From assembly GCA_963745835.1 (NCBI GenBank), contig CAVUZH010000022.1, positions 192,001 through 256,000 of the forward strand: a DNA stretch of 64,000 nucleotides. Reading direction: 5' to 3'. A program made the translations under genes and the position numbers. The DNA is from an uncultured delta proteobacterium. Lineage in GTDB: Bacteria > Desulfobacterota > Binatia > UBA9968. How positions within the stretch are numbered: position 1 is the stretch's first letter; each line of letters begins with the position of its first letter. Shown here in pieces: positions 36,181 through 59,729 of this stretch. The notes beneath the pieces are model-generated. The model was not told the origin of the DNA. It saw nothing but the letters and a program-made list of their open reading frames with translations, and did no database searches.

Positions 36181-36255
36181 CTCGGAACATTTTCTTCCGT
36201 GCGAAGTCTAATCGAAGAAATTGCAACTCGGAAAACACCGCCTCAGGAGGAAACA

Positions 36256-38559: not shown

Positions 38560-38592
38560 GGCCCGATTGGTTTCTAACCGGTCGGGCCTTTT
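38560..38592 (+). terminator. Intrinsic terminator-like hairpin upstream of the binding-protein array
   Basis: GGCCCGATTGGTT-TCT-AACCGGTCGGGCC followed by TTTT. Confidence 0.65.
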
Positions 38593-38667: not shown

Positions 38668-39660
38668 ATGATCACGAAAATAATCAGTCGCCAGTGGTCA
38701 GCAGTCAGTTTTGCTGTTGGCGTTTTGCTGTTTCCGCTTTGCGTATCCGCTCAAAGCCAGCAAACAACGAAGCTCTACCGTATAGGATATCTAACTGGTG
38801 GCTCCCTTTCTTTTGAGGGGGCGCTCGGCCAGGGGCTGCGCGATCTTGGATACGTCGAAGGAAAAAACATCATCATTGAGCGACGCTCTGCAGACGGAAA
38901 GCTCGATCGACTAGCTACTCTCGCGGAGGAGTTAGTGCGTCTGAAGGTAGACGTCATCGTCACAGCTGGCTTGGGGACAACCGGTCCCGCACATGCAGCA
39001 ACGAAGACGATTCCTATTGTCATGACGCAGGATCAGGACCCGGTTAGTAACGGGTTTGTCGCTAGTTTGGCGCGGCCAGGCGGAAACATCACGGGGTTGT
39101 CCACTCTTGCCCCCGAGATAAGCGGAAAACGACTTGAGCTTCTGAAAGAAGTCCTCCCTAAGCTCTCGCGGGTTACCGTCCTGGGGACATCAACGAGCCC
39201 GAGCACGGCACAAGCTTTAAAGGAAACCGAACTCGCCGCAGCCGCATTTGCAGTCAATCTTCACTACCTCGATGTACGGACTTCGAAGGATGTCGGAATG
39301 GCCTTTGGAGCCGCAGCGAAAGAGCGTGCTGACGCAGTCCTAGTACTTGGGGGTCCAGTGCTCGCTTCTCAGCGATCACAGTTTCCCGATCTCGCAGTAA
39401 ACAGCCGGCTCCCGGCAATATACTGGAGGTCGGATATTGTGGAAGACGGCGGACTTATGAGCTACGGCGTGAACTTGCCCGACTTAAACCGCCGCGCCGC
39501 GACGTATGTTCACAAGATTCTCACAGGGGCGAAGCCAGGCGATTTGCCCGTGGAGCGGCCGAATAAATTCGAGCTAGTCATCAATCTGAAAGCGGCGAAG
39601 CAGATTGGTCTGGCGATTCCGCCCAACGTGCTGGCGCGAGCGGACAGGGTGATCCGGTGA
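38668..39660 (+). CDS. ABC_sub_bind (PF04392-like) substrate-binding protein, array copy 1
   Basis: Signal peptide, [45 protein letters not shown]. Confidence 0.9.
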   Translation: MITKIISRQWSAVSFAVGVLLFPLCVSAQSQQTTKLYRIGYLTGGSLSFEGALGQGLRDLGYVEGKNIIIERRSADGKLDRLATLAEELVRLKVDVIVTAGLGTTGPAHAATKTIPIVMTQDQDPVSNGFVASLARPGGNITGLSTLAPEISGKRLELLKEVLPKLSRVTVLGTSTSPSTAQALKETELAAAAFAVNLHYLDVRTSKDVGMAFGAAAKERADAVLVLGGPVLASQRSQFPDLAVNSRLPAIYWRSDIVEDGGLMSYGVNLPDLNRRAATYVHKILTGAKPGDLPVERPNKFELVINLKAAKQIGLAIPPNVLARADRVIR

Positions 39661-39718
39661 CAGCGGTCAGAGATCAGAAGTCAGACAACAGAGATCGGAA
39701 AACCCAGGACGAACAGCA

Positions 39719-40711
39719 ATGACTGAAAAAATCATTCTTCTTGCTCTATGCTCCCTTCTCCTTGCTCCATGCGCTGCCGTCGATGCGCAGCGGCCGACGA
39801 AAGTCCCGCGGATAGGGTACCTATCGAATAGCGATCCAGCTCAGGAGTCCGCCCGTTCCGAGGCCATTCGGCTGGCTCTGCGCGAGGTTGGCTACATAGA
39901 AGGACAGAACATCGCCACTGAATACCGATATGCGGAGGGAAAACCCGATCGATATCCTGAGCTTGCGGCCGAGCTGGTGGCCCTCAAGGTTGATATCATC
40001 GTGGTACCCGGAGGGGACATACAGATCAGGGCGGCCAAGGATGTGACCAAAACGATTCCCATTGTTATGGTGGGGCAAGGGCTCGATCCTGTTGAGGCAG
40101 GCCTCGTTGAAAGCCTCGCCCGTCCCGGCGGCAACGTTACCGGTGTTACAAACCTTGGCACAGATCTAGGCGGGAAGCGCCTGGAGTTGCTCAAAGAAGC
40201 CGTTCCCAAACTTTCCCGCGTCGCGGCTATTTACGCTCGCACCATTCCCCGCAGTGTACTCGAAGCGAGAGAGGTTCTCCCAGTCGCAGCGCGTGCGCTG
40301 TGGTTGACTGTTCGGTCTTGGGAAGTACGAGCTGTGGACGATTTCGACAGGGTATTCGCTGAGATCAGTAAGTGGCGTCCCGACGGACTCTACGTGCTTG
40401 GCGGCGGCGCGCTAATGCGTGCTAACGAAAAAAGGATGATCGGCTTTGCATTAAAGAGCCGGTTACCGTCTGTGTACACGACGCCAGCCGTAAATGCCGG
40501 TGGACTCATGTACTACGGGGCGGACTTCGCGGACAGCTACCGGCGCGTAGCCACCTACGTGGATAGAATCATCAAGGGCGCAAAGCCCGCGGATCTTCCC
40601 ATCGAGCAGCCGACGAAGTTTGAGTTGGTGATCAATCTGAACACGGCAAAGCAGATCGGCCTGACAATTCCGCCGAACGTGCTGGCGCGAGCGGACAAGG
40701 TGATCCGGTGA
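39719..40711 (+). CDS. ABC_sub_bind substrate-binding protein, copy 2
   Basis: Same conserved blocks. Confidence 0.9.
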   Translation: MTEKIILLALCSLLLAPCAAVDAQRPTKVPRIGYLSNSDPAQESARSEAIRLALREVGYIEGQNIATEYRYAEGKPDRYPELAAELVALKVDIIVVPGGDIQIRAAKDVTKTIPIVMVGQGLDPVEAGLVESLARPGGNVTGVTNLGTDLGGKRLELLKEAVPKLSRVAAIYARTIPRSVLEAREVLPVAARALWLTVRSWEVRAVDDFDRVFAEISKWRPDGLYVLGGGALMRANEKRMIGFALKSRLPSVYTTPAVNAGGLMYYGADFADSYRRVATYVDRIIKGAKPADLPIEQPTKFELVINLNTAKQIGLTIPPNVLARADKVIR

Positions 40712-41739
40712 AGCGATTTTGGATTTGTCAGATTTTGGATTTTGGATTGGACGACTCCAGGAGTCAGAAAATTTTCGTCTTACTCTTGCGCGCATTGCTC
40801 TTTGCGCTTTGCTCGTCCGCCGAGGCGCAGCAGCAGGCAAAGATACCTAAGATTGGCTGGCTCGGAGTCCGTCCCGCTGCGTCAGACCCGGGCGCGAGTT
40901 ATTCGGTCGAGAGTTCCGTGAACTCGGCTATGTTGAAGGCAAGAACATAATATTCGAGTATCGATCCGCTGACGATAAGCTCGAACGGCTCCCCGCCCTG
41001 GCTGATGAATTGGTCCGTCTCAAAGTTGACGTGCTCCTCGCGTCCGTGGACGCCTGCTGCCGCTAGCCGCCAAGAACGCTACCACGTACGATCCCCATCG
41101 TTTTTTAACGGCGGCTGATCCTGTTGCGCTGGGCTGGTTGATAGCCTGGCGCGGCCTGGGGGGAACATCACAGGGTTCACCAGCATTGCGCCGGTGTTAG
41201 CTGGCAAACGACTTGAGTTACTCAAGGAAACCATTCCCAAACTCTCCCGCGTTGCGGTGCTGTGGGATCCGCAGAATCCAGGCTCTGCGCAACAATGGAA
41301 AGAAAGCCAACTGCCGGCACGAGAACTGGGTTTGCAACTTCATTCCATGGAGGTAAGCAGCGCCGACGAATTCGAGAGCGCGTTCAAAGAGGCGATTAAG
41401 GCGCGTAGCGCCGCTCTCGCCGTGATGGCGAGCCCGTTTGTCTATTCTAATCAAAAACAGATCATGGACCTGGCGACAAAAATCGATTGCCGGCGATATA
41501 CCCTCGGGAAGATTTTGTCGACAGCGGCGGCTTGATGTCCTACGGAGCCGACCGGAGCCGAATCCTTCAGGCGCGCCGCGTTGATGGTCGACAAGATTTT
41601 GAAAGGTGCCAAGCCCGCCGATCTTCCCGTGGAGCAGCCGACGAAGTTCGAGTTCGTCATCAATCTGAAAGCGGCGAAGCAGATCGGTCTGACGATTCCG
41701 CCGAACGTGCTGGCGCGGGCGGATAGGGTGATCAAGTGA
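40708..41739 (+). pseudogene. ABC_sub_bind protein, copy 3, frameshifted
   Basis: Family blocks spread over ORFs 40708, 41194, 41487 and other frames. Confidence 0.8.
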
Positions 41740-41777
41740 AGCTTAGGGTCACGATTTCAGACAAGGAAGCCAGACAA

Positions 41778-42821
41778 GTGATCGAAATATTTGGATCCGT
41801 TCTTCGCCTCTCAATCGACAATCTGAAATTTAAAATCGAAAATCTAAAATGGCTGTTTTCGGAATTGCTTTTATGATCGTGGCGTATGTGGGCCTAGCTC
41901 AGGCGCAGCAGCCAGCGAAAGTCCCGCCGGATAGGATACCTATCTAATACCTCCCCTTCCGTTGCTGCAGCTCCGCGTCGAGGCTTTCCGTCAGGGTCTG
42001 CGCGAGCTTGGATACGTAGAGGGGAAAAACATTGTCATTGAGTGTCGATACTGCGGAGGGAAAACTCGATCGCCTGCCCGCGCTCGTGGCTGAGCTGGTG
42101 CGTCTCAAGGTAGACGTCATCGTCACCGGTGGTCCGACAGCAACCCGTGCTGCCAAGGAAGCGACGACAACGATTCCCATTGTCATGGCGCAGGATGGCG
42201 ATCCTGTTGCAGCGGATTCGTCGCCAGCCTGGCGCGGCCTGGCGGGAACATTACTGGGCTGTCAACTCTTGCCCCGGAGATAAGCGGAAAACGACTGGAG
42301 CTTTTGAAGGAGATCGTTCCCAGGCTCTCCCGCGTGGCCGTCCTCGGGACTTCGACCGATCCGGGCAACGCACAAATTTTAAAAGAGATGAACTGGCCGC
42401 AGGCGCGTTGCGAGTGCAGCTTCAATACCTGGACGTGCTAAGTTCCAAGGATATTGAGACTGCCTTCCGAGCCGCAAGCAAGGCGCGTGCTGACGCAGTC
42501 CTCGTGCTGGCGGGTCCTGTGCTCAATTCTCAGCGAACACAGGTTGTAGAGCTCGCGGTAAAGAGCCGGCTTCCGGCGATATACAGCTAGCCAGAATTTG
42601 TGGAAGCTGGCGGGCTTATGACCTACGGCGTGAACATGAGCGACTTGGCGCGGCGCGCCGCCACCTATGTGGATAAGATTCTGAAAGGCGCCAAGCCCGC
42701 CGATCTTCCGGTGGAGCAGCCGACGAAGTTCGAGCTAGTGATCAATCTCAAAGCAGCCAAGCAGATCGGCTTGACGATTCCGCCGAATGTGCTGGCGCGG
42801 GCGGATAGGGTGATCAAGTGA
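41778..42821 (+). pseudogene. ABC_sub_bind protein, copy 4, frameshifted with in-frame TAG at 42588
   Basis: Family blocks in ORFs 42032, 42129, 42600. Confidence 0.8.
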
Positions 42822-42872
42822 CAGAGGTCAGAGAGTCAGAGGTCAGAGATCGAGAAAGCACGACGTATAGCA

Positions 42873-43863
42873 ATGACCAAGAAAATCGATTACTCCTAGG
42901 TCTATGCTCCCTGTTCTCTTGCTCCATGCACGGCAGCCGACGCACAGCAGACAGGCAAAGTCTTCCGCATAGGTTTCCTGGATCGAAGCAATGCTTCGGG
43001 CAGCGCGCTCGTCATCGATGCGTTCCGGCAAGAGATAAGCAAGCTTGGCTGGATTGAGGGAAAGAATGTCACCATCGAGTACCGGTTTGCCGAAGGAAAA
43101 ACTGACCGGCTACCTGAACTTGCGGCGGAGCTGGTTCGCTTGAAGGTGGATCTAATTGTGGTCTCAGGGAGGGCCCGGGATTGGCGGCTAAGAAAGCTAC
43201 CACTAACATTCCAATTGTGATGATGAGCTTTCCGGACCCGTAGCTGCGGGTATGGTTGCCAGTCTGGCGCGGCCGGGAGGCAATGTCACCGGGCTCTCAA
43301 GTTTAAGTCCCGAGCTAAACACTAAAAGATTAGAGATACTTAGGGATGCAGTCCCCAAGCTTTCCCGAGTTGGACTTCTGCGGCAAGTGGGAAGCCCCGA
43401 ATCAGCAGACCTCCCATTGAAAGAGCTCAGGGCTGCGGTTCCGATACTGAACCTGAAATTAGAGGAGATCGAAACTGAACCTAATGCCAAAGGATTAGAT
43501 AGCGCCTTTCAAACCGCAAAGCAGAAGCAAGTCAATGCGATTATGCAGGGCGGTGGTCGAGGCTTTTTCGGCGAAAGAAAGCGAATCGTCGAGTTTGCCG
43601 GCAAATACCGGTTCCCGGCTATTTACAATCAGAAGGAGTTTGTCGATGCGGGCGGTCTCATGTCCTATGGGGAGGACTACAATCACCTCTACCGAATCGC
43701 GGCCGTTTACGTCGACAAGATCTTGAAAGGTGCCAAACCCGCTGATTTGCCGGTGCAGCAGGCAACGAAGTTCGAATTCATCATAAATCTCAAGGCAGCA
43801 AAACAGATTGGTCTGACGATTCCGAACCGTGTGCTGGAGCGGGCGAATCAAGTGATTCAATAA
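42873..43863 (+). pseudogene. ABC_sub_bind protein, copy 5, frameshifted 5' part
   Basis: Intact 43252-43863 half plus shifted N-terminal blocks. Confidence 0.8.
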
Positions 43864-43892
43864 GCGCGAGGTGGTGAGGCTTAAGGCGTGAG

Positions 43893-44889
43893 ATGAGAAA
43901 AGTGAATCGGGAAATCTTGACGGTAACGCTTCTCGCCATATTCTTTGGGCTTTCCTTACCCGCCTCTGCGCAGCCAAAAAAAGTTCCGCGGATTGGTTAT
44001 CTATCATCGATTGATTCAACTAGTGAGTCCACCCGTTCCGAGACGATTCGGGGGGCGCTCAATGAGCTTGGCTATGTCGAAGGACAGAACATCGCGATCG
44101 AGTACCGATATTCGGAGGGGAATACCGATCGGGCTTCCGAGCTTGCGGCCGAGCTAGTGCGTCTCAAGACCGATATCATCATCGTAGCGGGAGGAATCAT
44201 ATGGATCAGGGCCGCCAAGAATGCCACCAACACGATTCCTATCGTCATGGTGGGCGCTGGAAACGACCCTGTCGAGGCAGGCTTAATTGAAAGCCTCGCC
44301 CGTCCAGGTGGCAACATTACCGGCCTGACAAATCTTTCCGGCAGATTAGGCGGCAAGCGGCTTGAGCTGCTAAAAGAAGCCGTTCCCAAAGTTGCCCGTG
44401 TCGCGATTCTCTATGATCCAGCCACCCCAGCCAATAGAGGCGAGTTGAAAGAAGTTCAGACCGTTGCGCCGGCGCTCAAGTTGACTGTTCAGCCTTGGGA
44501 GCTAGGAGACGTGGACGGCTTTGACAAGGTATTCGCTGGACTAAACAAGGAGCGCCCCGATGGACTCCACGTGCTTGGGAGCCCGTTACTTAACAATAAC
44601 CAAAAACGAATCGCGGACTTTGCGTTGAAGAACCGATTACCCTCGATGTACCAGAACAGAGAAGCTGTAGATGCCGGCGGGCTCATGTCGTACAGCGCGG
44701 ACCTTGCGGACAGCAACCGGCGCGTCGCCACCTACGTGGACAGAATCCTGAAGGGATGCCAAGCCCGCCGATTTACCCGTCGAACAGCCGACAAAGTTCG
44801 AGCTGGTGATCAATTTAAAAACGGCAAATCAGATCAGCGTCACCATTCCCCAGAAAGTCCTGGCGCGAGCGGACAGGGTGATCAAGTAA
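43893..44889 (+). CDS. ABC_sub_bind protein, copy 6 (frameshift near 44755)
   Basis: Conserved tail [21 protein letters not shown]...[10 protein letters not shown] continues in another frame to 44889. Confidence 0.85.
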
Positions 44890-44919
44890 AACAGTGACCA
44901 GCAGTAAGAGCAGAAAAAA

Positions 44920-45900
44920 TTGATGAATAGAAAAATCGTTTGCCTTGCACAATTTGCTTTGCTCTTTGCGCTGTGCTCGGCAGAGGCGCAGCAGCAGGCA
45001 AGAGTTCCTAAGATTGGGCTTCTCAGAGCCCGTCTCGCCGCTTCAGGCACCTCGCTTGACGGATTGCTGCGAGAGCTTCGCGTATTAGGTTACATAGGAG
45101 GCAAGAACGTAATTATCGAGTCCCGATCAGCCGAGGGTAAGCTTGACTAGCTCCGCGCCCTAGCCGATGAGCTGGTCCGTCTCAGAGTAGACGTTCTTGT
45201 GACAGCCTCTTCAGTGGAAGCCGTGGCCGCCAAGAACGCTACCACGATCATTCCCATCGTCTGTTTAAACCTGGGTGATGCTGTTGGATATCGGCTAGTT
45301 GATAGCCTAGCGCGTCCCGGCGGGAACATCACGGGATTCACTGGCATTTCGGGGGAATTATCGGGCAAACGGCTGGAGTTGCTGAAGGAGACCGTGCCCA
45401 AACTCTTCCGTGTTGCGGTGCTGTGGAACCCGCTAAACCTAGGCTCTACTCAAGAATGGAAAGAAGGCCAATTGCTGGCTCGAGACCTGAGTTTGCAGCT
45501 GAGTTCAATGGAAGTAAGCAGCGCAGACAAATTCGAGGCGAGTTTCAAAGAAGCGACGAAGGCCGGTAGTGGCGCTATCGTCGTGACGCGGAGCACGCTC
45601 AACAATTCTTATCAAAAATTGATTGCGGACCTCGCGAGGAAAAATCGACTCCCAACGACAACGAGTCGTAATGATTTTATCGAGAGCGGCGGTTTGATGT
45701 CCTACGGCGCCGACCAAGCCGAGCCCTACAGGCGCACCGCAGCGATGGTCGACAAAATCCTGAAAGGCGCGAAGCCTGCAGATCTGCCTGTCGAGCAGCC
45801 AACGAAATTTGAGCTTGTGATCAATCTGAAGACGGCGAAGCAGATTGGACTGACGATTCCGCCAAGCGTGCTGGCCCGAGCGAACAAAGTGATTCAATGA
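44920..45900 (+). pseudogene. ABC_sub_bind protein, copy 7, single in-frame TAG at 45148
   Basis: EGKLD*LRALADELV; both parts are in the same frame. Confidence 0.82.
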
Positions 45901-45948
45901 CAGTGAAATAAGAATGATCTTTGACAGCACAACGCAGGTGAAATTCGT

Positions 45949-46929
45949 ATGAAGAAAATTCTTTCTTTCGCTCTAAGCACGATGCTCATCGGTGTTAGTC
46001 TTCCTGCCTATGCGCAGCAGCAGGAGAAACTTTATCGTATAGGATTTTTGTCAGGAGGTTTTTCCGGGCCTTCGTCTAATGTAGAAGCATTTCGACAAGG
46101 GCTCCGCGATCTGAATTACGTTGAGGGTAACAACATTGTCATCGACTATCGATATGCCGAAGGGCAGACCGGCAGTCGATATCCTGCGCTTCTTGCAGAC
46201 CTCATCCGACTCAGAGCCGACATCATCGTTGCCGATGGCAGCGGCCCGGCTCGGGCTGCCAAAAAAGCAACAAGCACGATTCCCGTTGTTATGACGACTA
46301 GCACCGATCCTGTTGGGCAGGGCCTCGTTGACAGTCTTGCGCGACCCGGCGGAAACGTTACGGGCCTAACAAGCGTGAGCGAGGAGTTGGGCGGAAAACT
46401 TCTGGAGTTGACTAAGGAGATTGTCCCGAAGCTGACTCGCGTCGCGATCGTATTCCCAGACGGTCTAGCGGGTCAACTCTTCGTTAAACAGACAGAGGGA
46501 CCAGCACGCACGCTGGGAATACGCCTAATACCCTTAACTGTTCGCCAACCTGACGATTACGAGAACGTTTTTCGAGCCGCGGCGAAGGAACGCGTTGAGG
46601 CGATTATCAGCCGGCTCGGTCCCTCTCCTTTGTCTGCTCACCGCGGACAGTTTATGGCATTAGCCACGAAGAGGCGTCTACCAGTGGTTTCTCAAGGAAC
46701 GGACGATGCAGAGGCCGGCGCTCTTTTATCCTACGGACGGGATGTCTTTGCCCAGTACCGTCGCGTCGCCATATTTGTGGACAAGATTTTGAAAGGCGCA
46801 AAGCCCGCTGAGTTGCCTGTTGAAGCTCCGACGAAGTTCGAGCTGGTTATCAATTTGAAAGCGGCCAAGCAGATCGGCCTGATTATTCCACCCCACGTGC
46901 TGGCGCGCGCTGATAAGGTAATCAAGTGA
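45949..46929 (+). CDS. ABC_sub_bind protein, copy 8
   Basis: Intact 326 aa, family blocks. Confidence 0.9.
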   Translation: MKKILSFALSTMLIGVSLPAYAQQQEKLYRIGFLSGGFSGPSSNVEAFRQGLRDLNYVEGNNIVIDYRYAEGQTGSRYPALLADLIRLRADIIVADGSGPARAAKKATSTIPVVMTTSTDPVGQGLVDSLARPGGNVTGLTSVSEELGGKLLELTKEIVPKLTRVAIVFPDGLAGQLFVKQTEGPARTLGIRLIPLTVRQPDDYENVFRAAAKERVEAIISRLGPSPLSAHRGQFMALATKRRLPVVSQGTDDAEAGALLSYGRDVFAQYRRVAIFVDKILKGAKPAELPVEAPTKFELVINLKAAKQIGLIIPPHVLARADKVIK

Positions 46930-47921
46930 GAAGGCCATCAGGCATGAGGGCTGTTCTTCTGCTGGTCAGCTTTATCTTCCCGAGTATCCATTTTGCCCAA
47001 GCCCAGCAGCCCGCGAAAGTCCCCCGAATAGGATTCCTAACCGGCGCCGCCCTTTCCACTCAGCTGGCTCGTGTGGAAGCATTCCGGGAGGGTCTACGCG
47101 AGCTTGGGTATGTGGAGGACAAAAACATTGTCATTGACTGGCGATCGTATGAGGGAGAACGCGATCGTCAGGGAGCGCTCCTGAGGGAGCTGGTGGATCT
47201 CAAAGTAGACGTCATCGTTGCCGTCGGTGTAGGCGATATACGCGCCGCCAAGGAGGCAACGACCACAATTCCTATTGTGATGTTAGTCGGTGGTGATCCT
47301 GTTGCAAGCGGGTTAGTTTCCAGCCTTGCGCGACCAGGTGGAAATATAACCGGATTGGCAACCCTTCGCCCGGAGTTAACCGGCAAACGACTCGAGCTTA
47401 TGAAAGAAATCGTGCCTAAGCTCTCGCGTGTTGCAATCTTTGCCAGTTCAGAGAGCCAGGACTACTCCCATGTTCTAAAAGAACTCGATCTCAGCGCAGA
47501 GGCGTTCGCCGTAAAGCTTCAAGTTGTTAATGTCCGCAGTGCCAAAGATATCGAGCCAGCATTCCGAAACGCAGTCAAAGGGCGAGCTGACGGCATCATT
47601 TTCCGAGTGCCGGGACCGCAGGCCAGTTTTCAGCGACCGCAGATTGCAGCACTCGCCGTTAAAAGTGGATTGCCAGTGATATACGAAGGCGCAGAATTTG
47701 TCGAAGCCGGGGGACTCATGAGCTACGGCGTGAGCATTAACGACCTAGCTCGTCGGGCAGCCACGTACGTTGACAAGATTCTCAAGGGCGCCAAGCCCGC
47801 CGATCTCCCGATCCAGCAGCCAACAAAGTTCGAGCTGGTGATCAATCTTAAGACGGCCAAGCAGATCGGATTGACGATCCCGCCGAACGTGCTGGCACGA
47901 GCGGACAAGGTAATCAAATGA
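46926..47921 (+). CDS. ABC_sub_bind protein, copy 9
   Basis: Intact; GTGA overlap with copy 8. Confidence 0.9.
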   Translation: MRRPSGMRAVLLLVSFIFPSIHFAQAQQPAKVPRIGFLTGAALSTQLARVEAFREGLRELGYVEDKNIVIDWRSYEGERDRQGALLRELVDLKVDVIVAVGVGDIRAAKEATTTIPIVMLVGGDPVASGLVSSLARPGGNITGLATLRPELTGKRLELMKEIVPKLSRVAIFASSESQDYSHVLKELDLSAEAFAVKLQVVNVRSAKDIEPAFRNAVKGRADGIIFRVPGPQASFQRPQIAALAVKSGLPVIYEGAEFVEAGGLMSYGVSINDLARRAATYVDKILKGAKPADLPIQQPTKFELVINLKTAKQIGLTIPPNVLARADKVIK

Positions 47922-48988: not shown

Positions 48989-49033
48989 ATTTTGGATTTT
49001 CGAGTTGCGGATTTCCGATTGAGGACGAAGACA

Positions 49034-50080: not shown

Positions 50081-50131
50081 TTTCGATTTCAGTTTGGCGA
50101 TTTTCGATTAGGAGAGACAAATGAGCAAAGC

Positions 50132-51172: not shown

Positions 51173-51217
51173 CTCGGAGCAAGGAGCAGGGAGCTACAAA
51201 GACATGTGTGGAAACTC

Positions 51218-52207
51218 ATGAGAGGAAACTTCTACGGTCTTGCGCTTTGCGCCATGCTCTTTGCGTTTGGCCCTGGCGCGGAAGCGCAGCAGCCAACGAA
51301 AGTCCCGCGGATAGGATATCTATTGCCGGGCAACCCCGCTAGTGAGTCCACTGTTTTCGAGGCAACTCGACTGGCTCTACGCGAGCTTGGCTACATAGAA
51401 GGACAGAACATTGCCACGGAGTACCGATATGCGGAGGGGAAGCGCGATCGATTTCCTGAGCTTGCGGCCGAGCTAGTGCGTCTCAAGGTTGATGTCCTCG
51501 TGGTGGCAGGAGGGAACACACCGGTCCGGGCGGTCAAGAATGCGACCAAAACGATTCCGATCGTTATGGCGGGCGGATCCGATCCCGTCGAGGCAGGGCT
51601 GGTCGAAAGCCTCGCCCGTCCCGGCGCCAACGTCACCGGCCTTACAAACCTTGCGAGAGAACTGGGGGGGAAGCGGTTGGAGCTGCTCAAAGAAGCCGTT
51701 CCCAAACTTGCCCGTGTCGCGGTTCTCTACGATGCGGTCAATCCTTCCCATGTACGCGAGGTGAAAGAGGTTCTCCCAATGACAGCGGGTGCGCTGAAGT
51801 TGACTATTCAGCCTTGGGAGGTGCCAGACGTAGACGGTTTCGAGCGAGCATTCGCTACGTTTAAAAAGGAGCGCCCCGACGGACTGTACGTGCTCTCAGG
51901 CACACGAGTGTGGGCTATCTATAAACGGATTGCGGGCTTCGCGTTAAAGAGTCGGTTACCATCGATATACAACAACACAGAAGCTGTAGATGCTGGCGGG
52001 CTCATGTTTTATGGGGCGGACGTCGTGGACAGCTACCGTCGGGTCGCTCTCTACGTTGATAGAATTCTCAAGGGCGCTAAGCCGGCCGACCTGCCCGTGG
52101 AGCAACCGACGAAGTTCGAGCTGATCATCAATCTGAAAACCGCGAAGCAAATCGGTTTGATAATTCCGCAGTCCGTGCTCGCGCGAGCGGACAAGGTCAT
52201 TAAATAG
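51218..52207 (+). CDS. ABC_sub_bind protein, copy 13
   Basis: Intact. Confidence 0.9.
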   Translation: MRGNFYGLALCAMLFAFGPGAEAQQPTKVPRIGYLLPGNPASESTVFEATRLALRELGYIEGQNIATEYRYAEGKRDRFPELAAELVRLKVDVLVVAGGNTPVRAVKNATKTIPIVMAGGSDPVEAGLVESLARPGANVTGLTNLARELGGKRLELLKEAVPKLARVAVLYDAVNPSHVREVKEVLPMTAGALKLTIQPWEVPDVDGFERAFATFKKERPDGLYVLSGTRVWAIYKRIAGFALKSRLPSIYNNTEAVDAGGLMFYGADVVDSYRRVALYVDRILKGAKPADLPVEQPTKFELIINLKTAKQIGLIIPQSVLARADKVIK

Positions 52208-52252
52208 CTCGGAGCAAGGAGCAGCGAGCTACAAAGACATGTGTGGAAACTC

Positions 52253-53230: not shown

Positions 53231-53273
53231 AAGGGAGCAAGGAGCAGGGAGCGGCAAGCACACGTGAAGAAAC

Positions 53274-54269
53274 ATGATAACAAAATTCTTTTGTCTTACC
53301 CTTAGCACTTTGCTCTTTGCACTTAGCTGTCCGGTCGAGGCGCAGCAGTCGAAGAAAATCCCTCGGATAGGTTATCTATCGCCGCTCGATCAAAGTCGCG
53401 AGTCCACCCGTGCCGGGGTAATTCGCCACGCGCTGCGCGAGCTTGGCTACATAGAAGGACAGAACATCGCCATCGAGTACCGATATGCAGAGGGGAAGCG
53501 TGATCGGTTCCCTGAACTCGCGGCCGAGTTGGTGCGTCTTAAAGTTGATGTCATCGTGGCAGCAGGAGGAGAGCCGTTGATCCGGTCTGCCAAGAATGCG
53601 ACCAAGACGATTCCCATTGTGATGACGGGCTCCGGGCCAGATCCTGTCGAGGCGGGCCTTATTGAAAACCTTGCCCGTCCAGGCGGCAACGTCACTGGGC
53701 TTACCTATCTTTCCACTGAATTAGGCGGTAAGCGGCTGGAGCTGCTCAAAGAAGCGTTAGCCAAATTGACTCATGTCGCGGTTCTCTACGATCCGGCCAC
53801 TCCGGGCACTGCACGCGAGGTCAAAGAAGACCTCCCAGTTGCAGCGCGCGCGCTGGGTTTGACGGTTCGCTCTTGGGAGGTACGAGACGCGGTCGGTTTG
53901 GAGAAAGTATTTGCTGCGCTAACCAAGGAGCGTCCGGATGGACTCTATGTGCCGCTCACGGGAGCACTAATGCGTGCTAACGGAAAACGGATTGCGGGAT
54001 TTGCGTTAAAGAGCCGGTTACCGTCCCTGTACGGCGACAAAGAAGGTGTGAACGCCGGTGGGCTCATGTACTATGGCGCGGACCTCGCGGACAGCTACCG
54101 GCGCGTCGCCACCTACGTGGACAAAATTTTAAAGGGCGCAAAGCCTGCCGATCTGCCGGTGGAGCAGCCCACAAAGTTCGAGTTGGTGATCAATCTCAAA
54201 ACGGCGAAGCAGATCGGCCTGACGATTCCGCCGAGCGTGCTGGCGAGAGCGGACAAGGTGATTAGATGA
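53274..54269 (+). CDS. ABC_sub_bind protein, copy 15
   Basis: Intact 331 aa. Confidence 0.9.
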   Translation: MITKFFCLTLSTLLFALSCPVEAQQSKKIPRIGYLSPLDQSRESTRAGVIRHALRELGYIEGQNIAIEYRYAEGKRDRFPELAAELVRLKVDVIVAAGGEPLIRSAKNATKTIPIVMTGSGPDPVEAGLIENLARPGGNVTGLTYLSTELGGKRLELLKEALAKLTHVAVLYDPATPGTAREVKEDLPVAARALGLTVRSWEVRDAVGLEKVFAALTKERPDGLYVPLTGALMRANGKRIAGFALKSRLPSLYGDKEGVNAGGLMYYGADLADSYRRVATYVDKILKGAKPADLPVEQPTKFELVINLKTAKQIGLTIPPSVLARADKVIR

Positions 54270-54301
54270 AAGGCGAGTCGAATAGCTTGATGGCTTCAGC
54301 T

Positions 54302-54760
54302 TCAAAGAAAGTCGGAAAGGACCAGAACTTGAACCGCGTCGAGCCTTTTCACTCGCTTATCGTTGGTCAAAAACAATGTGGCTTCCTCCTGAATAGCAGC
54401 GGCGAGTTGCAGAGCGTCGGGCAGGCGGATCGTGTAGCGTGCCCGAATGAGCGCCGCCGTTTCCGCCAGCTTCTCGTCAATCGGCGCCATGGAAAGCGAA
54501 GAGAAAGACTTGAGCGTGAATTTGATTTCGTCGGCGAGAGCAAAGTTTTTGTCGGCGAAGGGTTTTGTCAGAATCTCGGCCAATGTCACCGACGAGGTAA
54601 CGGCGCGCAGAGCATTATTTTCCAGCAAGGTAAATACCGGATCGAGGAGATCGGCGTAGGGAGCAATATCCTCGATATAATAAATGAACGGCGCGGTATC
54701 GAGGCCGATGATCTTGTGCTTTTCGACGGCGCGGCGAAGCTTAAGCGCGTTGCCATTCAT
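54302..54760 (-). CDS. vapC: PIN-domain VapC toxin
   Basis: IGLDTAPFIY, SSVTLAE, IRLPDALQLAAA, FLTND acidic PIN motifs. Confidence 0.88.
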   Translation of the reverse strand: MNGNALKLRRAVEKHKIIGLDTAPFIYYIEDIAPYADLLDPVFTLLENNALRAVTSSVTLAEILTKPFADKNFALADEIKFTLKSFSSLSMAPIDEKLAETAALIRARYTIRLPDALQLAAAIQEEATLFLTNDKRVKRLDAVQVLVLSDFL

Positions 54761-54989
54761 CGCGCAGCTTCTCGATATAGGCGTCGATCTTGGCTCGACT
54801 GCCCCAGGTCCCTTTGCCGAGACCGCGCAGGCGAGCCGTCGGGCTCTTGGGTTTAGGCCGGAGGACGATTTTGTCGCCTTCGACGACAGCGGCCAACCAA
54901 TCACCGGGCTTTAGTCCCAAGCTCTTACGGATCGCTTTGGAGATAACGATTTGTGACTTTTGATTGAGTTTTAGTACCGATTCCATCAT
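54741..54989 (-). CDS. AbrB/MazE/SpoVT-family antitoxin
   Basis: KSQIVISKAIRKSLGLKPGD..VEGDKIVLRP; overlaps the PIN gene start. Confidence 0.88.
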   Translation of the reverse strand: MMESVLKLNQKSQIVISKAIRKSLGLKPGDWLAAVVEGDKIVLRPKPKSPTARLRGLGKGTWGSRAKIDAYIEKLRDEWQRA

Positions 54990-55062
54990 GGTACTCCAAA
55001 AACCATACTTAGGGTAAATTTAACAGGCTTGGGTTACACCGTCAATCGAGCATTGTGATCAG

Positions 55063-56116
55063 ATGACAGCAGTCAGCGGTCAGCTATCAGCGGTCAGCAG
55101 GTTACCGGAGACAAAACCCGTAACGAAATCTATTCTTGTCTGGCTCCTGGCAACTATCTTTCTGCCGACTGCTCTTGTCGTCGAGGCGCAGCAGCCGAAG
55201 AAGGTCTTCCGGATAGGGTATCTATCGTCGTTCGATCCAGCTAGTCGACTCCCATGGCACCGAGGCAATTCGGTTGGCTCTGCGCGAGCGTGGCTACATC
55301 GAAGGACAGAACATCGTCTTCGAATACCGATATGCGGAGGGGAAGCTCGATCGGTTCCCTGAACTTGTGGCCGAGTTGGTGCGCCTCAAGGTTGATATCA
55401 TCGTGATAGCAGGAGGCAACGGGACGGTGCGGGCCGCCAAGAACGCGACCCAGACGATTCCCATCGTTATGGCGGGGATTCCAGCCGATCCTGTCGAGGC
55501 AGGTCTTGTTGAAAGCCTTGGCCGTCCCGGGGGAAACGTCACCGGGCCTACCTATCTTTCTACTGAATTAGGCGGTAAGCGGCTAGAACTGCTCAAAGAA
55601 GCGTTAGCCAAATTAACTCATGTCGCGGTTCTCTACGATCCCGCCACTCCGGGCACTGCACGCGAGGTCAAAGAAGACCTCCCAGTTGCAGCGCGCGCGT
55701 TGGGTTTGACGGTTCGGTCTTGGGAGGTACGAGACGCGGTCGGTTTGGAGAAGGTATTCGCTGCGCTAAGCAAGGAGCGTCCCGACGGAATCTATGTGCC
55801 TCTCACGGGCGCGCTGATGCGCGCCAACGGAAAACGGATCGCCGATTTTGCATTAAAGAGCCGGCTGCCGTCCCTCTACGGCGATAAAGAGGGTGTGAAT
55901 GCCGGTGGGCTCATCTACTATGGGGCCGACCTCGTGGACAGCTACCGGCGCATGGCCACCTACGTAGACAGAATTTTGAAGGGAGCTAAGGCCGCCGATC
56001 TGCCCGTCGAGCAGCCGACGAAGTTCGAGTTGGTGATCAATTTCAAGACGGCGAAGCAGCTCGGCCTCACTATTCCCCCTCAGTTACTGGCGCGCGCGGA
56101 CAAGGTCCTTAAATGA
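55063..56116 (+). CDS. ABC_sub_bind protein, copy 16 (frameshift near 55250)
   Basis: ORFs 55063 and 55274 join; C-terminal part nearly identical to copy 15. Confidence 0.85.
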
Positions 56117-57198
56117 TTTTCATTTTAAATTGCCGATTTTCGATTGAGGAAATAAAGCGCATGAGCAAAAGCTTTTCGCTTTTCGTTCTGCAATCTTGCT
56201 CTGACAATTTAAAACCGAAAATCCCAAATTTAAAATGCTATGGGATCGTTGTCATGGTTGTCACTTTCGTAATGTGTGGACCTGTGGCTCAGGCGCAGCA
56301 GCGCGGAAAAATGTCGCGGATCGGGATCCTGTTTTATGGCTCTCGGGATCAACCGCACCTACAATCCTTTCAGCAAGGACTATTTGATCTTGGGTATATC
56401 GAACGGAAAAACATTGCTTTTGAATACCGCTATGCGGAGGGAAACCCTGATCGTCTTGCCGCTCTCGCAGACGATTTGGTCCGGATCCCAGTCGATGTCA
56501 TCGTAACCACAACCGACCAGGGTGCCCGGGCGGCGGCCCAAGCAACGCGGACTATCCCCATCGTGTTGACAACGGGCGATCCGCTGGGCTCAGGCCTGGC
56601 TGCGACCTTGGCCAAACCCGGCGGCAATGTCACGGGGCTGACTGTGCTGTTAGCGGATTTGAGCGGGAAGCGGTTGGAGCTGCTCAAAGAGACTATTCCT
56701 GGCATTACTCGTATAGCCGTGCTGTGGAGCGCTGACAGCGCTGGTATTAGTGCTTTCAAGGAGACACAAGCGGCGGCATTGGGGTTTTCATTGCAGCTTA
56801 ACGCCTTTGAGGTCGATAGAGTCGGACAAATTGACAGGGTATTTTCAGAGATGCCGAAGGCGCGCACGCAAGCGCTGGTCGTGGTATTGAGTCCTTTAAT
56901 GACCCTCAATTCAAAGAGGATCGTAGATCTCGCGGTAAAAAATCGATTGCCTGCCATGTATGCCACCCGGCAATTTGTCGAGGAAGGTGGACTTATGGCG
57001 TACGGACCGAGTATTGGCGACTTGTATCGGCGCGCCGCTACTTATGTGGATAAAGTCTTAAAAGGTGCTGACCCGGCGGAACTCCCAGTAGAGCAGCCGA
57101 GGAAGTTTGAGTTCTTCATCAATATAAAGGCGTCAAAGCAGATCGGGCTGACGATTCCGCCCAATGTGCTGGCGCGAGCAGACAGGGTCATCAAGTAA
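56113..57198 (+). CDS. ABC_sub_bind protein, copy 17
   Basis: Intact; ATGA overlap; alternative start 56161. Confidence 0.9.
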   Translation: MIFILNCRFSIEEIKRMSKSFSLFVLQSCSDNLKPKIPNLKCYGIVVMVVTFVMCGPVAQAQQRGKMSRIGILFYGSRDQPHLQSFQQGLFDLGYIERKNIAFEYRYAEGNPDRLAALADDLVRIPVDVIVTTTDQGARAAAQATRTIPIVLTTGDPLGSGLAATLAKPGGNVTGLTVLLADLSGKRLELLKETIPGITRIAVLWSADSAGISAFKETQAAALGFSLQLNAFEVDRVGQIDRVFSEMPKARTQALVVVLSPLMTLNSKRIVDLAVKNRLPAMYATRQFVEEGGLMAYGPSIGDLYRRAATYVDKVLKGADPAELPVEQPRKFEFFINIKASKQIGLTIPPNVLARADRVIK

Positions 57199-57625
57199 CC
57201 ATCACAGAACCTAAAGCTTGCCGGCTTGCGACCCTGAGCAGCATGAACGCAGTCTCCTTGAACCTGAGGCCCGACTACCGGCTGAGGAACAGCTAAGACT
57301 GAAGCTGCGGCGACTCATCCAATCAAAAGACATCGTAGAGTTGGCGGGGCCAGCATTGACATTGTTGACAACATGGTTACGTTCAGACCTCCCCGAGAGT
57401 TACGACAACCATCTTTCGCTGATTGAGTCCATTTTCCACATCAGGTGCGAGGCACCAGCGACGAAATCATCGAGTTAGGCTCACCGATAGATCTTACCAT
57501 TCAGACGACGCATGCCCGGTGTTTGCGTTTAGTGCTTTATCTCTTATCGGCCACTAGGTAACGCGATTTTTACAGGAATAAGAGGAGTCCGGTCTTAGAC
57601 GCTATTGGAGGAACAAGAAGGTTCT

Positions 57626-57895
57626 ATGAAAAAGCTACTTATTCTGGCGGCTCTGCTCGTTTTGTTGCCGATTATCAGCGATGCGGCTGAGGTTCGCGGA
57701 GATAACCGAAAGGACGTAGCGCCTAGCCCAATCGTTGAACCCAAAGAGCGGAGAAATACAAGCATAACCTACGAGTCGATTCAACCAGACGCTATCCCTA
57801 ACAATATTGGACTACTCGGCCCGTCAAGGCAGGAAATTCACGATTTCCTTTATCCGACGCTCAACGATGGGAAAGTTGTAATACCAACCAACTAG
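57626..57895 (+). CDS. Small secreted hypothetical protein
   Basis: MKKLLILAALLVLLPIISDA signal peptide. Confidence 0.55.
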   Translation: MKKLLILAALLVLLPIISDAAEVRGDNRKDVAPSPIVEPKERRNTSITYESIQPDAIPNNIGLLGPSRQEIHDFLYPTLNDGKVVIPTN

Positions 57896-58283
57896 AATGG
57901 CGCGCAGGCCCGGGGAATCGCCACTAGGCCCAAATGACAAGACGCCAGTTTCAGATGAGGGCATGTACTTACGTTACCAAAAAAAAGGTAGCCGAAAATA
58001 TAACCCGTGGGTTCTACGTACTGAATGTTTTCTTATCAGGTAAAAAGGTTGTTGTTTAGTTCAGTATTGGACAGCAATCCCTCTACGGGAGATGCAAGGG
58101 TGAGCAAATCGACCCAAACGTCATACGGAAGTAGCGCTTTTCGACGTACGTTAGAGACAAAAAAGGGTCGCCCTTGAGGGCCTTCGTACCGCCAGGAGAG
58201 GTGGTTTTAAAGACCCCACCAAGGGAGGGAGGCCCCAACAGCCTAAGCGGCCACCCGAAGAATTTTGCGGTGGAAAAAACATC

Positions 58284-58490
58284 ATGATGATTGTGCTAGG
58301 TTACTTCCTTATTGCAGCAGGAGCCGTCATCGCAGCATCAGCGATCATCGGGTTTTTTCTTACTAACTTGCTGATTCTGTTGCTTCAGACGATTGATCGT
58401 TCTATCAGACTTTGCAGAGGTGCGGTCCCTGCGTTTTCTGCGCCCCATCGGCTTCTGAGAAAACTCCGTAGTTTAGAAAATCTGGCGTAA
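58284..58490 (+). CDS. Small hydrophobic membrane peptide
   Basis: 68 aa; long hydrophobic N-terminus, basic C-terminus. Confidence 0.45.
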   Translation: MMIVLGYFLIAAGAVIAASAIIGFFLTNLLILLLQTIDRSIRLCRGAVPAFSAPHRLLRKLRSLENLA

Positions 58491-58577
58491 GCGCTGCTTT
58501 AACAATCATGCCCAATTCGAGCAGCTAAGGGTGTCGCGAATAGCGGCCGGACTCTTCTCGGCGGCCGAATTAGGTGC

Positions 58578-58631
58578 GGTCTGACAATTCCGCCCAACGT
58601 TCTGGCGCGAGCGGACAGAGTGATCAAGTGA
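58578..58631 (+). repeat. Orphan 54-bp copy of the conserved binding-protein 3' tail
   Basis: Encodes [17 protein letters not shown] with no gene body upstream. Confidence 0.85.
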
Positions 58632-58757
58632 GAAGAGCCAATACTAGAAAGCCGAATTTAGGCCTCGCGCACCAAGTGAAACCATTTTCGTTTTAGTTTC
58701 GCTTTTCGATTCAAGGCTCCTGGCTGGTCAATGCATCGAGATTCTCAAAGGAAACAC

Positions 58758-59729
58758 ATGCGTAAAAATATCATCCTGACGCTGCTGCCCATTTTGATCC
58801 TTGCCTCAGTGCAATTCAGCCACGCTCAGCAAACAAAGAAAGCAACGATAGGAATTCTGACTCTCGCGTCCGACGACCCGTTAGTGAAGGTGCTTCGCGA
58901 AGGGCTGCGGGACCTCGGCTATGTCGAGGGACAGAACATCGTCTTCGAGCATCGCTATGTAGACGGGAAGGTCGAGCGCCTTTCCGATCTTGCCGCGGAG
59001 CTGGTGCGCATGAAGGTCGATGTGATCGTGGCGAGGTCCACGCCGGTCGTCCAGGCGGTCAAGAAGACGACGACCACGATCCCGGTCGTCATATCGGTTC
59101 CGGACTCGGTCGGCTCCGGATTCGTCGCCAGCCTGGCCCGACCCGGAGGAAATATTACTGGGACGTCCTCCATCATGCCGGAGCTGGCAGGCAAGCGGTT
59201 GGAGCTGCTCAGAGAAATTTTTCCAAAGCTTTCCCGGGTTGCCTTCCTGGCGCATGGAGGTGATTCGTCGCATCCCCAGTTTATCAAGGAGCTCCAGGAC
59301 GCGGCCGAGAGCGCCCGGCTTCAGGTTCAGCCCGTCGTGGTCAAGGGTCCCGAGGAGTTCCAAAGCGCTTTCGATTCCATGGAGCGAGAGCGGGCTGGCG
59401 CTGTGATCGTTCAGCCGCTTTTTGCCGGCGTTCTTGGAGTAGCGGGGCCGATCGCGGAGCTTGCGATGAAGAATCGTTTGCCGACAATCTCGGACGGACT
59501 TCGCTTTGCGGACGCGGGAGGCCTGATCTATTACGGGCCGGATCAGCTCGCATTGTGGCGGCGCATCCCTATCTATGTCGACAAGATTTTGAAAGGCGCG
59601 AAGCCGGAGGAACTGCCGGTCGTGCAGCCGTCCAAGTTCGAGCTGATGATCAATTTGAAAACGGCCAAGCAGATCGGTGTTACCATTCCGCCGAATGTGT
59701 TGGCGCGTGCGGACAAAGTGATCAAGTGA
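58758..59729 (+). CDS. ABC_sub_bind protein, copy 18
   Basis: Intact, family blocks. Confidence 0.9.
   Translation: MRKNIILTLLPILILASVQFSHAQQTKKATIGILTLASDDPLVKVLREGLRDLGYVEGQNIVFEHRYVDGKVERLSDLAAELVRMKVDVIVARSTPVVQAVKKTTTTIPVVISVPDSVGSGFVASLARPGGNITGTSSIMPELAGKRLELLREIFPKLSRVAFLAHGGDSSHPQFIKELQDAAESARLQVQPVVVKGPEEFQSAFDSMERERAGAVIVQPLFAGVLGVAGPIAELAMKNRLPTISDGLRFADAGGLIYYGPDQLALWRRIPIYVDKILKGAKPEELPVVQPSKFELMINLKTAKQIGVTIPPNVLARADKVIK

Follow-up and report, generated by a model that had tools for sequence, protein, structure and literature searches.

The nearest precedent for the gene arrays described here is the orphan expansion of the TctC/Bug receptors (PF03401) of the tripartite tricarboxylate transporters (TTT). 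Rhodoplanes carries 434 of these genes, and there, as in Bordetella and Cupriavidus, many paralogues share very few cognate membrane components; the genes form tandem arrays, the largest reported of nine, some of them lie beside histidine kinases, and the families grew mainly by duplication within their lineages in soil bacteria (PMC5994714). We describe a similar case in a 64 kb window (C22:192001-256000, the whole stretch of DNA analysed) of the 7.28 Mb genome (G000, 25 contigs) of an uncultured soil or rhizosphere bacterium whose closest related records are labelled Deltaproteobacteria or Binatia. Positions 38668-59729 of the window hold 18 full units of ∼1 kb, all on the + strand, which encode members of the ATP-binding cassette (ABC) receptor family PF04392 (ABC_sub_bind), plus one solo copy of the 3' tail of a unit. 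In our best explanation, to which we give about an even chance of being right as a whole, the array belongs to a lineage-specific expansion of orphan binding proteins that would probably serve as sensory co-receptors.

The PF04392 arrays differ from the TTT expansions in several respects. Their family is of the ABC type, and they are longer, with 18 units in the window and 45 tails in the array on contig C19 compared with the largest reported nine (PMC5994714). They are strictly co-oriented, with overlaps of 4 nucleotides (nt) at some junctions, and they display a junction hotspot in the coding tail, many broken units and a specific, conserved kinase candidate. The kinase recalls a second group of described systems, LuxP-LuxQ, HptA-HptS, ChvE-VirA and CBP-ChiS, in which a binding-protein gene likewise lies directly upstream, on the same strand, of the gene for a membrane histidine kinase with a dCache domain as its periplasmic part (PMC8050422); these known pairs match one binding protein with one kinase, whereas here 1-45 paralogous units precede the candidate kinase and most PF04392 units stand in arrays elsewhere. 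The TrpX receptors (NF041285; 3LFT, 3LKV) belong to the same Pfam family as the units and align with them over their full length, including the C-terminal tail. Unlike TrpX, the units score 125-141 bits, below the equivalog cut-off of 390, have no permease or ATPase gene nearby and exist in about a hundred copies rather than one. Finally, the arrays resemble integron arrays and chromosomal superintegrons, but in form only: both are long series of co-oriented short genes whose content varies between close relatives, with toxin-antitoxin modules inside and a conserved sequence at the unit boundaries. In contrast to integrons, no integron integrase was found, the boundary sequence is coding, all 18 units are of one family instead of being unrelated genes, and the 4-nt overlaps at five junctions leave no room for an attC site. 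To our knowledge, these arrays, with C19 at their head, are among the longest single-family tandem gene arrays in a bacterium.

Pfam assigned all 14 of the long open reading frames (ORFs) submitted from the window array to PF04392, with E values from 4e-32 to 1.8e-54 and scores of 112-185 bits (gathering cut-off 25.9). The remaining four units were recovered by tblastn with unit 9 as the query, as pieces in differing frames, and a DNA profile of the last 153 nt, run with nhmmer, yielded 18 full tails and the solo 3' tail. These three approaches bear out the first-pass annotation, which had seen 18 co-oriented PF04392-like paralogues in the letters alone. Its description of the units as joined in many cases by ATGA or GTGA overlaps is likewise fair, as long as "many" is not taken for "most": one of the two motifs ends 11 of the 18 tails, and the ORF that begins at the overlap codon runs on into the next unit at five of the 17 junctions (2>3, 4>5, 8>9, 9>10 and 16>17). 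Among the 59 window ORFs scanned there was no BPD_transp-type ABC permease, and the only ABC ATPase is SufC-like and lies within a suf operon (4618-5376), which, the suf gene aside, agrees with the earlier statement that the 64 kb contain no permease or ATPase gene.

By inspection, a hydrophobic leader ending in A-Q stands ahead of a conserved RIG motif in 12 of 12 open units, and A18 and Q19 are almost invariant across 56 copies; the array proteins are predicted to be secreted. A profile of the 56 copies aligns over its full length with the solved PF04392 proteins 3LKV (E 8.5e-55) and 3LFT (E 3.7e-49). The window array is a run of tandem paralogues of secreted PF04392-type solute-binding proteins and one of six such arrays in the genome. 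Identity between whole units is mostly 65-70% and reaches a maximum of 85% (units 15 and 16). In a FastTree phylogeny of 75 rows, array-mates are scattered over old subfamilies (the 14 C22 rows require 13 changes, the mean after shuffling being 13.0), apart from one local clade of units 2, 6, 12, 13, 15 and 16; branch lengths between paralogues (0.3-0.8) are far above those between orthologues (0.02-0.08). Neither promoter-like sites (15, with 9.5 ± 2.9 expected) nor terminator-like sites (17, with 21.2 expected) are enriched in the array, and the window contains no Rfam match and no tRNA gene.

Genome-wide, the tail profile gave 119 matches, 103 full and 16 partial, which fall into six arrays, each strictly co-oriented, plus solo genes (Table 1); 69 near-full open frames compare with the 103 full tails. 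PF04392 occurs in all 24 of the other genomes searched in the taxonomic family, where a first look gave up to 156 candidates, in four of five genomes of a second family and in none of 11 of a third, all three in one order; these phyletic tallies include the unpublished genomes G012 and G018. The closest loci elsewhere belong to records titled Deltaproteobacteria bacterium, Candidatus Binatia, Syntrophobacter sp. SbD2 and similar. Co-oriented runs of 4-10 units are common among 80 loci fetched from unrelated assemblies, which also span Alpha- and Betaproteobacteria, Nitrospirota and Rokubacteria-type records. Examined as a possible lineage expansion, the family thus shows many paralogues, as counted by the 103 full tails, a single cognate permease, and presence in every one of the 24 family genomes. 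A lineage-specific expansion by birth and death, common to the whole taxonomic family, is in our judgement very probably what produced the tandem PF04392 genes. The literature that we found describes neither a PF04392 expansion nor a PF04392-kinase pair; supplementary tables might hold relevant entries.

Where the ligands of PF04392 proteins are known, the proteins serve ABC importers as receptors for Trp, Tyr and Phe (PMC10443332), and a model in which many receptors serve few permeases has been published for the TTT proteins Bug/TctC of Bordetella and Rhodoplanes (PMC5994714). The orphan receptors could accordingly form a transport battery that feeds a few shared membrane transporters encoded elsewhere, with the kinase adjacency described below as a side branch. 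In favour of this, PF02653 permeases have nine matches in the genome, spread over five loci, and most units do not adjoin a kinase. However, its sole PF04392-type transporter, on C23 (L019:2439-7445), is composed of a permease, an ATPase, a STAS protein and its own binding protein of 661 aa with two PF04392 domains, and the other permeases sit in Liv-type operons with a Peripla_BP_6 receptor of their own (for example C3:1294-1296k). The presence of a STAS gene inside an ABC importer operon is unusual. A permease of the C23 type was not found in 23 of the 24 other family genomes, all of which carry the expansion, the remaining genome having a homologue, and it was found in none of seven genus genomes (80-97% complete). 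None of the six arrays contains or adjoins a permease gene, so the orphan status that had been noted for the window extends to the genome as a whole. Because the C23-type permease is rare and the units stay far below the TrpX cut-off, the expansion does not depend on a canonical transporter, and we infer that the array proteins are not subunits of a canonical ABC importer. We consider the feeding of shared importers the main alternative function, though a rather unlikely one.

A different partner is suggested by the genes downstream. A histidine kinase with the domain order dCache_1-HAMP-GAF-HisKA-HATPase_c starts 32 nt past the last unit of the C19 array, and on C3 a solo PF04392 gene overlaps the start of a paralogous kinase by 4 nt. 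The sensor domain of this kinase has four paralogues in the genome, and all four lie downstream of a PF04392 tail on the same strand, at spacings that range from a 5 nt overlap to 524 nt. The arrangement holds at 24 of 30 kinase loci, one of them the host genome's own L103, where a PF04392 gene lies at most 800 nt upstream on the same strand; five loci are without one in that range (in one of them PF04392 is 1011 nt away), and the remaining locus is truncated by the end of its contig. When the three loci from the unpublished genomes G012 and G018 are left out, the proportion is 22 of 27. The distribution of the kinase over the three taxonomic families (23/24, 3/5 and 0/11 genomes) mirrors the pattern of PF04392. 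Further afield, two to five binding-protein genes followed by the kinase were seen at five of the 80 distant loci (Binatia, Hyphomicrobiaceae, Burkholderiales and Casimicrobiaceae), and the PF04392-kinase order was found at four of eight kinase loci of five named genomes, three of these four in two Bradyrhizobium genomes.

Kinase orthologues are 76-81% identical, and the binding proteins next to them are only 33-47% identical to the one on C19. By this comparison, the kinase is stable while the adjoining array turns over. In the window, unit 18 falls into a four-member clade with the kinase-adjacent unit of C19 (FastTree support 91). Sensor domains of the dCache type are established docking partners of other binding-protein families (PMC8050422). 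The Rhodothermus proteins 5Z6V, 6K1W, 8WGK and 8WXM are single-domain relatives of the second lobe of PF04392 proteins; their genes are often near chemoreceptor genes (PMC10805632), which is another hint of the PF04392 fold in signalling.

In the mechanism that we propose, binding proteins loaded with ligand would attach to a few conserved histidine kinases of the dCache-HAMP-GAF type, and the arrays would constitute a many-to-few repertoire of sensory inputs. We tentatively place such sensory co-reception ahead of shared importers as the most likely single function, at somewhat less than an even chance. We know of no earlier case of many paralogous receptors lined up before one kinase.

Comparison with G006, the genome of the same genus that served as our reference for orthology, revealed how much the array changes. 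The upstream flanks are 92% identical, yet the G006 array has ∼7.5 units compared with 18 in the window, and only window units 11-14 are colinear with it, at 90-93%; copy number and order hence do vary between related genomes, as the first-pass annotation had expected. Colinearity ends on the right ∼47 nt before the stop codon of unit 14 and on the left within the tail or leader between units 10 and 11, at a place that cannot be fixed exactly. Similarly, the C19 locus shares with G006, at 96% identity, a block made up of the kinase, the final unit and the last ∼30 nt of the tail before it; the C19 units upstream of this block have no G006 match of at least 80% over 600 nt. The two well-resolved ends of colinearity therefore both fall in the last 30-47 nt of a tail. 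A third rearrangement is of another kind: in G006, a deletion that begins mid-unit extends as far as the HATPase domain of the kinase downstream and leaves a fusion ORF. This ORF (L001:3568-4689, G006:C10, - strand) joins an N-terminal PF04392 fragment to an HATPase_c end, the rest of the array and the GAF kinase having been removed by the deletion. In G001, G004 and G005 the contigs stop at the kinase-adjacent last unit or no more than 155 nt from it, and they contribute no further breakpoints.

Tail remnants point to the same part of the unit. Fifteen partial tails reach the stop codon; 11 of them begin 45-62 nt before it, within a 30-nt stretch, and four begin elsewhere. In eight of these 11 cases the solo tail is preceded by heptad repeats, with ATCG as a microhomology common to repeat and tail; two pairs of them are mutual copies, so that fewer events are independent. 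Between units, 28 of 68 exact in-register matches of at least 20 nt are located in the last 200 nt. Recombination at the tail, which the first-pass annotation had proposed as the route of exchange, is consequently supported by two breakpoints and 11 of 15 remnants; the mid-gene break and the four remnants that begin elsewhere in the tail count against a cassette-like machinery.

Both foreign inserts of the window sit at a tail, as had been described. A toxin-antitoxin pair (PIN/AbrB-type, - strand) occupies a spacer from 33 nt past the stop codon of unit 15, and the second insert extends from the stop codon of unit 17 to the solo 3' tail. A second PIN-type pair was seen inside the C19 array (L008:8525-9153; C19:403525-404153). 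Toxin-antitoxin pairs could stabilise such arrays against deletion between repeats, as has been proposed for superintegrons. Within the second insert, a stretch of ∼180 nt (58261-58444), which overlaps a small hydrophobic ORF (58284-58490), is copied at 76-87% on C8, on C3 and in four genomes of the genus.

A further type of junction, for which we use the term mini-unit, consists of the stop codon of a full unit, a heptad repeat of ∼30 nt, a second copy of the last ∼50 nt of the tail and then the next unit. Mini-units occur at C3:1409603-1409693 and 1428137-1428228 and at C19:398114-398180, 400318-400386, 406491-406544 and 413413-413467. Two pairs of them, with spacings of 7 and 19 kb, are near-identical copies and point to the duplication of blocks within arrays.

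At some junctions the units are separated by a leader, here called B-type, that forms an imperfect palindrome of 7-nt repeats (ATTTTGG/ATTTTCG ... AATCCAA/AATCGAA). In addition to the three leaders of Table 1, partial copies lie at 40712-40750, 41815-41850 and 47921-48020. Translation of the right arm of the palindrome gives the Lys-rich beginning of long signal peptides. The motif is also present at unit junctions in G006 and five related loci, and not in the proteobacterial loci. In G006, the leader between units 11 and 12 departs from the window copy at only one of 154 bases, compared with differences of 7-10% in the genes. Phase variation by the 7-nt repeats was considered and is not supported, the number of repeats in this orthologous leader being unchanged. 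Short tandem repeats of period 7 are found at almost every junction between 38700 and 55100, in leaders and signal-peptide regions, with differing sequences (GATTTTG, CAGAGGT, GGAGCAA, CAGCGGT and TTGCGCT).

We propose that units and blocks of units duplicate, that loss and replacement of units are fast in comparison with point substitution, that some units decay, and that junctions are concentrated in the final 30-60 nt of the coding sequence. The process would be ordinary homologous or microhomology-driven recombination in the longest DNA shared by all units, and the preference for the 3' tail would follow from its being the best-shared DNA. A dedicated system, in which a site-specific recombinase encoded elsewhere moves a cassette made of the last ∼50 nt of a tail, the leader and the body, could also place remnant starts and two orthologous breakpoints in one short stretch. 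It would account for the toxin-antitoxin pairs inside two arrays, for the wholesale replacement of units beside 96%-identical DNA, for the full tail and solo 3' tail that bracket 57199-58576 as if after integration at a duplicated site, and for the palindromic leader, which occurs 22 times in arrays and eight times outside although arrays make up 1.9% of the genome.

The machinery for such a system is not apparent. The best match to the integron integrase model TIGR02249 scores 86 bits against a cut-off of 265, and none of the 14 weak matches is at a large array. We found no recombinase adjoining the three large arrays (C22, C19 and C3), an extension of what had been seen in the window, and among the 102 non-family ORFs in and around the C3, C14, C19 and C24 arrays the only such genes are broken phage-type integrase and insertion sequence (IS) pieces, which lie at the end of contig C24 and close to the two small clusters on C14. 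At five junctions the genes overlap by 4 nt, so that an attC-like site has no room; imperfect palindromes are present at only three full and about three partial of the 17 junctions. Moreover, breakpoints also occur mid-gene and at four other tail positions, eight of the 11 solo tails follow heptad repeats and the copied pairs lower the number of independent events, no two units are more than 85% identical, as recent copying would leave them, and neighbours are not homogenised. We regard a dedicated cassette system as very improbable. The receptor repertoire that had been envisaged survives and gains a candidate dCache kinase as its partner, but without the cassette machinery that had been placed behind it. 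In its fullest form, the proposal would be of an expandable repertoire whose units are exchanged one by one through the hotspot in the last 30-60 nt and all report to a few dCache kinases; this compound statement is speculative and, on the comparisons made, somewhat unlikely to hold in every part.

The tail itself had been singled out as conserved at the DNA level. All 18 tails match the tail profile (E 1e-37 to 4e-48), and the tail is the DNA most alike between units, at 78-86% over ∼150 nt compared with 65-70% for most whole units. However, the solved proteins of Vibrio (3LKV) and Streptococcus (3LFT) align through it, and 189 tails from the 80 loci and many phyla yield one C-terminal consensus. 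The tail is a family-wide C-terminal motif of PF04392 proteins and not special to the window locus, and most of its DNA conservation therefore reflects protein constraint.

A modest synonymous component remains. Codons for identical residues match more often in the last 35 codons than in equally conserved columns of the body; at four-fold sites the values are 0.43 for the tail and 0.31 for the body genome-wide, and 0.50 and 0.37 in the window. In three orthologous pairs with G006, the synonymous divergence, dS, of the tail (0.23, 0.20 and 0.68) is not below that of the body (0.14, 0.21 and 0.25); the unit 12 pair was left out because its G006 copy is broken. The comparison of synonymous divergence that had been suggested as a check thus shows an excess of identity over conserved body columns without a lower tail dS. 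Concerted evolution of the tails was rejected, tail synonymous identity being 0.47 for same-array pairs and 0.45 for different-array pairs, and 0.49 for adjacent and 0.46 for non-adjacent pairs. Since the excess is about equal within and between arrays and tail dS is not lower, it looks like long-term, site-specific constraint and not like ongoing homogenisation.

Such constraint may arise from translation. The last codons, GAC AAG GTG ATC AAR TGA, form a Shine-Dalgarno-like AAGGTGATC followed by the overlapping start, and they would serve translational coupling and, at some junctions, supply the start codon of the next unit. No conserved RNA fold was detected in the tail (RNAalifold, 19 tails, -1.64 kcal/mol, one of nine pairs changed on both sides). 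The last 18 codons are more stable than synonymous-codon-randomised controls in 52 of 69 genes, compared with 30-42 of 69 for five body windows; as the genes are related to each other, this is no more than a hint.

We next consider whether the array is real and its units functional. In four public runs of soil or rhizosphere origin, which come from four studies, contigs match parts of the array at 95-100%, and one contig of 1290 nt spans unit 15, the toxin-antitoxin insert and unit 16. Structural joints in these contigs (short, with sides of 20-35 nt) were not used, and array parts that they leave uncovered carry no meaning. No RNA data set is listed as holding the stretch. Repeat collapse or assembly duplication is unlikely since no two units exceed 85% identity. 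Together with the public-run contigs, this speaks against an assembly concatenation, which had been named as a way in which the array could prove spurious. As assembled, 12 of the 18 units are open and six are broken, by frameshifts in units 3, 4, 5, 6 and 16 and by an in-frame stop in unit 7. Public-run contigs carry single-base differences at 43173, 43236, 44757/8, 45148 and 55246 that, applied by script, would open units 5, 6, 7 and 16. In unit 5, two single-base variants in other public runs would open 321 of 348 codons; in unit 6, contigs of three runs lack one base near 44757; in unit 7, contigs of two runs have C for T at 45148; and in unit 16, one contig of run X1 lacks the base at 55246, which would open 350 of 351 codons. 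Because these variants open four units, the breaks are strain-specific or consensus errors rather than old decay. In three orthologous pairs with G006, omega, the ratio of nonsynonymous to synonymous divergence, is 0.11-0.20, compared with 0.17 for a flanking gene; the units are therefore under purifying selection, and they are functional.

These results also bear on the idea that the repertoire is inflated through the assembly or binning of mixed strains, or a graveyard of dying duplicates. About a third of the copies genome-wide are not near-full ORFs, six of 18 are broken in the window, the C22 and C24 flanks are near-duplicate, and the bin is large for its genus with an appreciable contamination estimate. 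On the other hand, units that differ by 15-35% are too divergent to have come from one gene through collapsed or duplicated reads, other populations have open versions of four of the six broken units, the contigs of four studies include one that bridges unit 15, the insert and unit 16, selection is evident in the orthologous pairs, and arrays of 4-10 units recur among loci from unrelated assemblies. An artefact or mere decay is hardly credible as the explanation.

Several points nevertheless weigh against our preferred reading of a sensory expansion. The window array does not adjoin a dCache kinase, the kinase downstream of it being a cytoplasmic multi-GAF protein, and at least 58 full tails lie in arrays or clusters without a dCache kinase directly downstream (C22, C3, C24 and C14). 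Two of the four kinase paralogues contain in-frame stops as assembled, and a ratio of about a hundred binding proteins to four kinases is odd. The contamination of the bin is estimated at 9.3%, and its 7.3 Mb compare with 3.9-5.5 Mb for its genus; the six broken units may be errors of assembly or strain mixture, and the C24 locus may belong to a co-binned relative. Lastly, that the starts of solo tails and two breakpoints fall in one 30-nt stretch is sharper than simple homology predicts, and this sharpness leaves room for a specific site.

Expansions of orphan receptors have long been puzzling, and the dCache kinase provides a concrete and testable candidate partner. If the sensory reading is true, one signalling pathway gains a large, fast-evolving set of chemical inputs. 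Both the presence of the kinase and the gene order track PF04392 across at least two bacterial classes, including the culturable Bradyrhizobium. PF04392 (ABC_sub_bind) is absent from the main text of a review of 13 binding-protein families that feed receptors (PMC8050422), and on the sensory reading it would become the fourteenth. Independently of function, the arrays are a natural system for the study of how tandem families gain and lose members.

Table 1. Features of the window (window coordinates) and tail counts of the PF04392 arrays in the genome
Feature	Position	Strand	Evidence or remark
ECF (extracytoplasmic function) sigma factor, upstream flank	34224-34802	+	Pfam
DUF2275-like membrane protein, upstream flank	34799-36022	+	Pfam
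DUF4139 protein, upstream flank	36199-37707	+	Pfam
Unit 1, open, 330 aa	38668-39660	+	PF04392, E 1.1e-50
Unit 2, open, 330 aa	39719-40711	+	PF04392, E 2.9e-38
Unit 3, frameshifted as assembled, GTGA overlap with unit 2	40708-41739	+	three tblastn pieces, ORF list
Unit 4, frameshifted as assembled	41852-42821	+	ORF list, tblastn
Unit 5, broken	42818-43863	+	ORF list, tblastn
Unit 6, frameshift near 44757 puts tail out of frame	43893-44889	+	ORF list
Unit 7, in-frame stop 45148-45150	44920-45900	+	ORF list
Unit 8, open, 326 aa	45949-46929	+	PF04392, E 9.6e-49
Unit 9, open, 331 aa, GTGA overlap with unit 8	46926-47921	+	PF04392, E 1.8e-54
Unit 10, open, 356 aa, ATGA overlap with unit 9	47918-48988	+	PF04392, E 1.1e-53
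Heptad-repeat palindrome (B-type leader), units 10/11	48989-49109	+	inverted repeat I1, 33-nt arms; -34.1 kcal/mol, z -1.9
Unit 11, open, 314 aa, G006 orthologue	49136-50080	+	Pfam; omega 0.14 against G006
B-type leader, units 11/12	50081-50180	+	inverted repeat; 1/154 aligned bases differs from G006
Unit 12, open, 346 aa	50132-51172	+	Pfam
Unit 13, open, 333 aa, G006 orthologue	51206-52207	+	Pfam; omega 0.20
Unit 14, open, 329 aa; G006 colinearity stops ∼47 nt before stop codon	52241-53230	+	
Unit 15, open, 331 aa, 85% nt identity to unit 16	53274-54269	+	Pfam
PIN-domain toxin	54302-54904	-	PF01850, E 2.4e-14
AbrB/MazE-type antitoxin	54741-54989	-	PF04014, E 2.6e-08; TIGR01439
Unit 16, N-terminal frameshift as assembled	55063-56116	+	ORF list, Pfam
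Unit 17, open, 361 aa, ATGA overlap; B-type leader 56121-56237 inside 5' end	56113-57198	+	
Second insert, no family assigned	57199-58576	not set	
Solo 3' tail, last 55 nt of a unit	58577-58631	+	nhmmer positions 99-153, E 1.1e-10; 87-89% to other tails
Unit 18, open, 332 aa	58731-59729	+	Pfam; clade of C19 kinase-adjacent unit
GAF-domain ORF run, on past the window to an HisKA-HATPase_c ORF	60625-64000	+	
C19 array			37 full, 8 partial tails (45 tails)
C3 array			21 full, 4 partial tails
C22 array (window)			18 full, 1 partial tail
C24 array			8 full, 1 partial tail
C14, two clusters			9 full, 1 partial tail
Solo or other			10 full, 1 partial tail

The three genes of the upstream flank also precede the C24 array (72-85% nt identity) and the orthologous array of G006 (92%). 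On C24 (376300-393557) they are followed by a different array of nine tails that ends at an IS (DUF772 transposase) at the contig end; this locus could be either a segmental, paralogous duplicate or part of a co-binned relative. In G006, the DUF4139 gene and the first unit are separated by an aquaporin (MIP) gene. In the window, a strong terminator-like hairpin of 14 pairs (38559-38589) is located 80 nt upstream of the start of unit 1, within a 960-nt gap without long ORFs. Downstream of the array, the GAF run (60625-64000, continued in L018:1-3303) looks like one very large cytoplasmic multi-GAF histidine kinase that is fragmented as assembled.

Other binding-protein genes without an adjoining transporter lie at 17231-18241 (SBP_bac_6), 19514-20536 (TctC) and 32935-33867 (NMT1) of the window and at L018:6092-7222 (a second TctC), and the host genome seems to be rich in orphan receptors of several families. 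An S1/P1 nuclease gene is present inside the C3 array (L011:6251-7024), and fragments of the same nuclease family stand beside both C14 clusters (L014:8265-8594 and L016:18628-18951).

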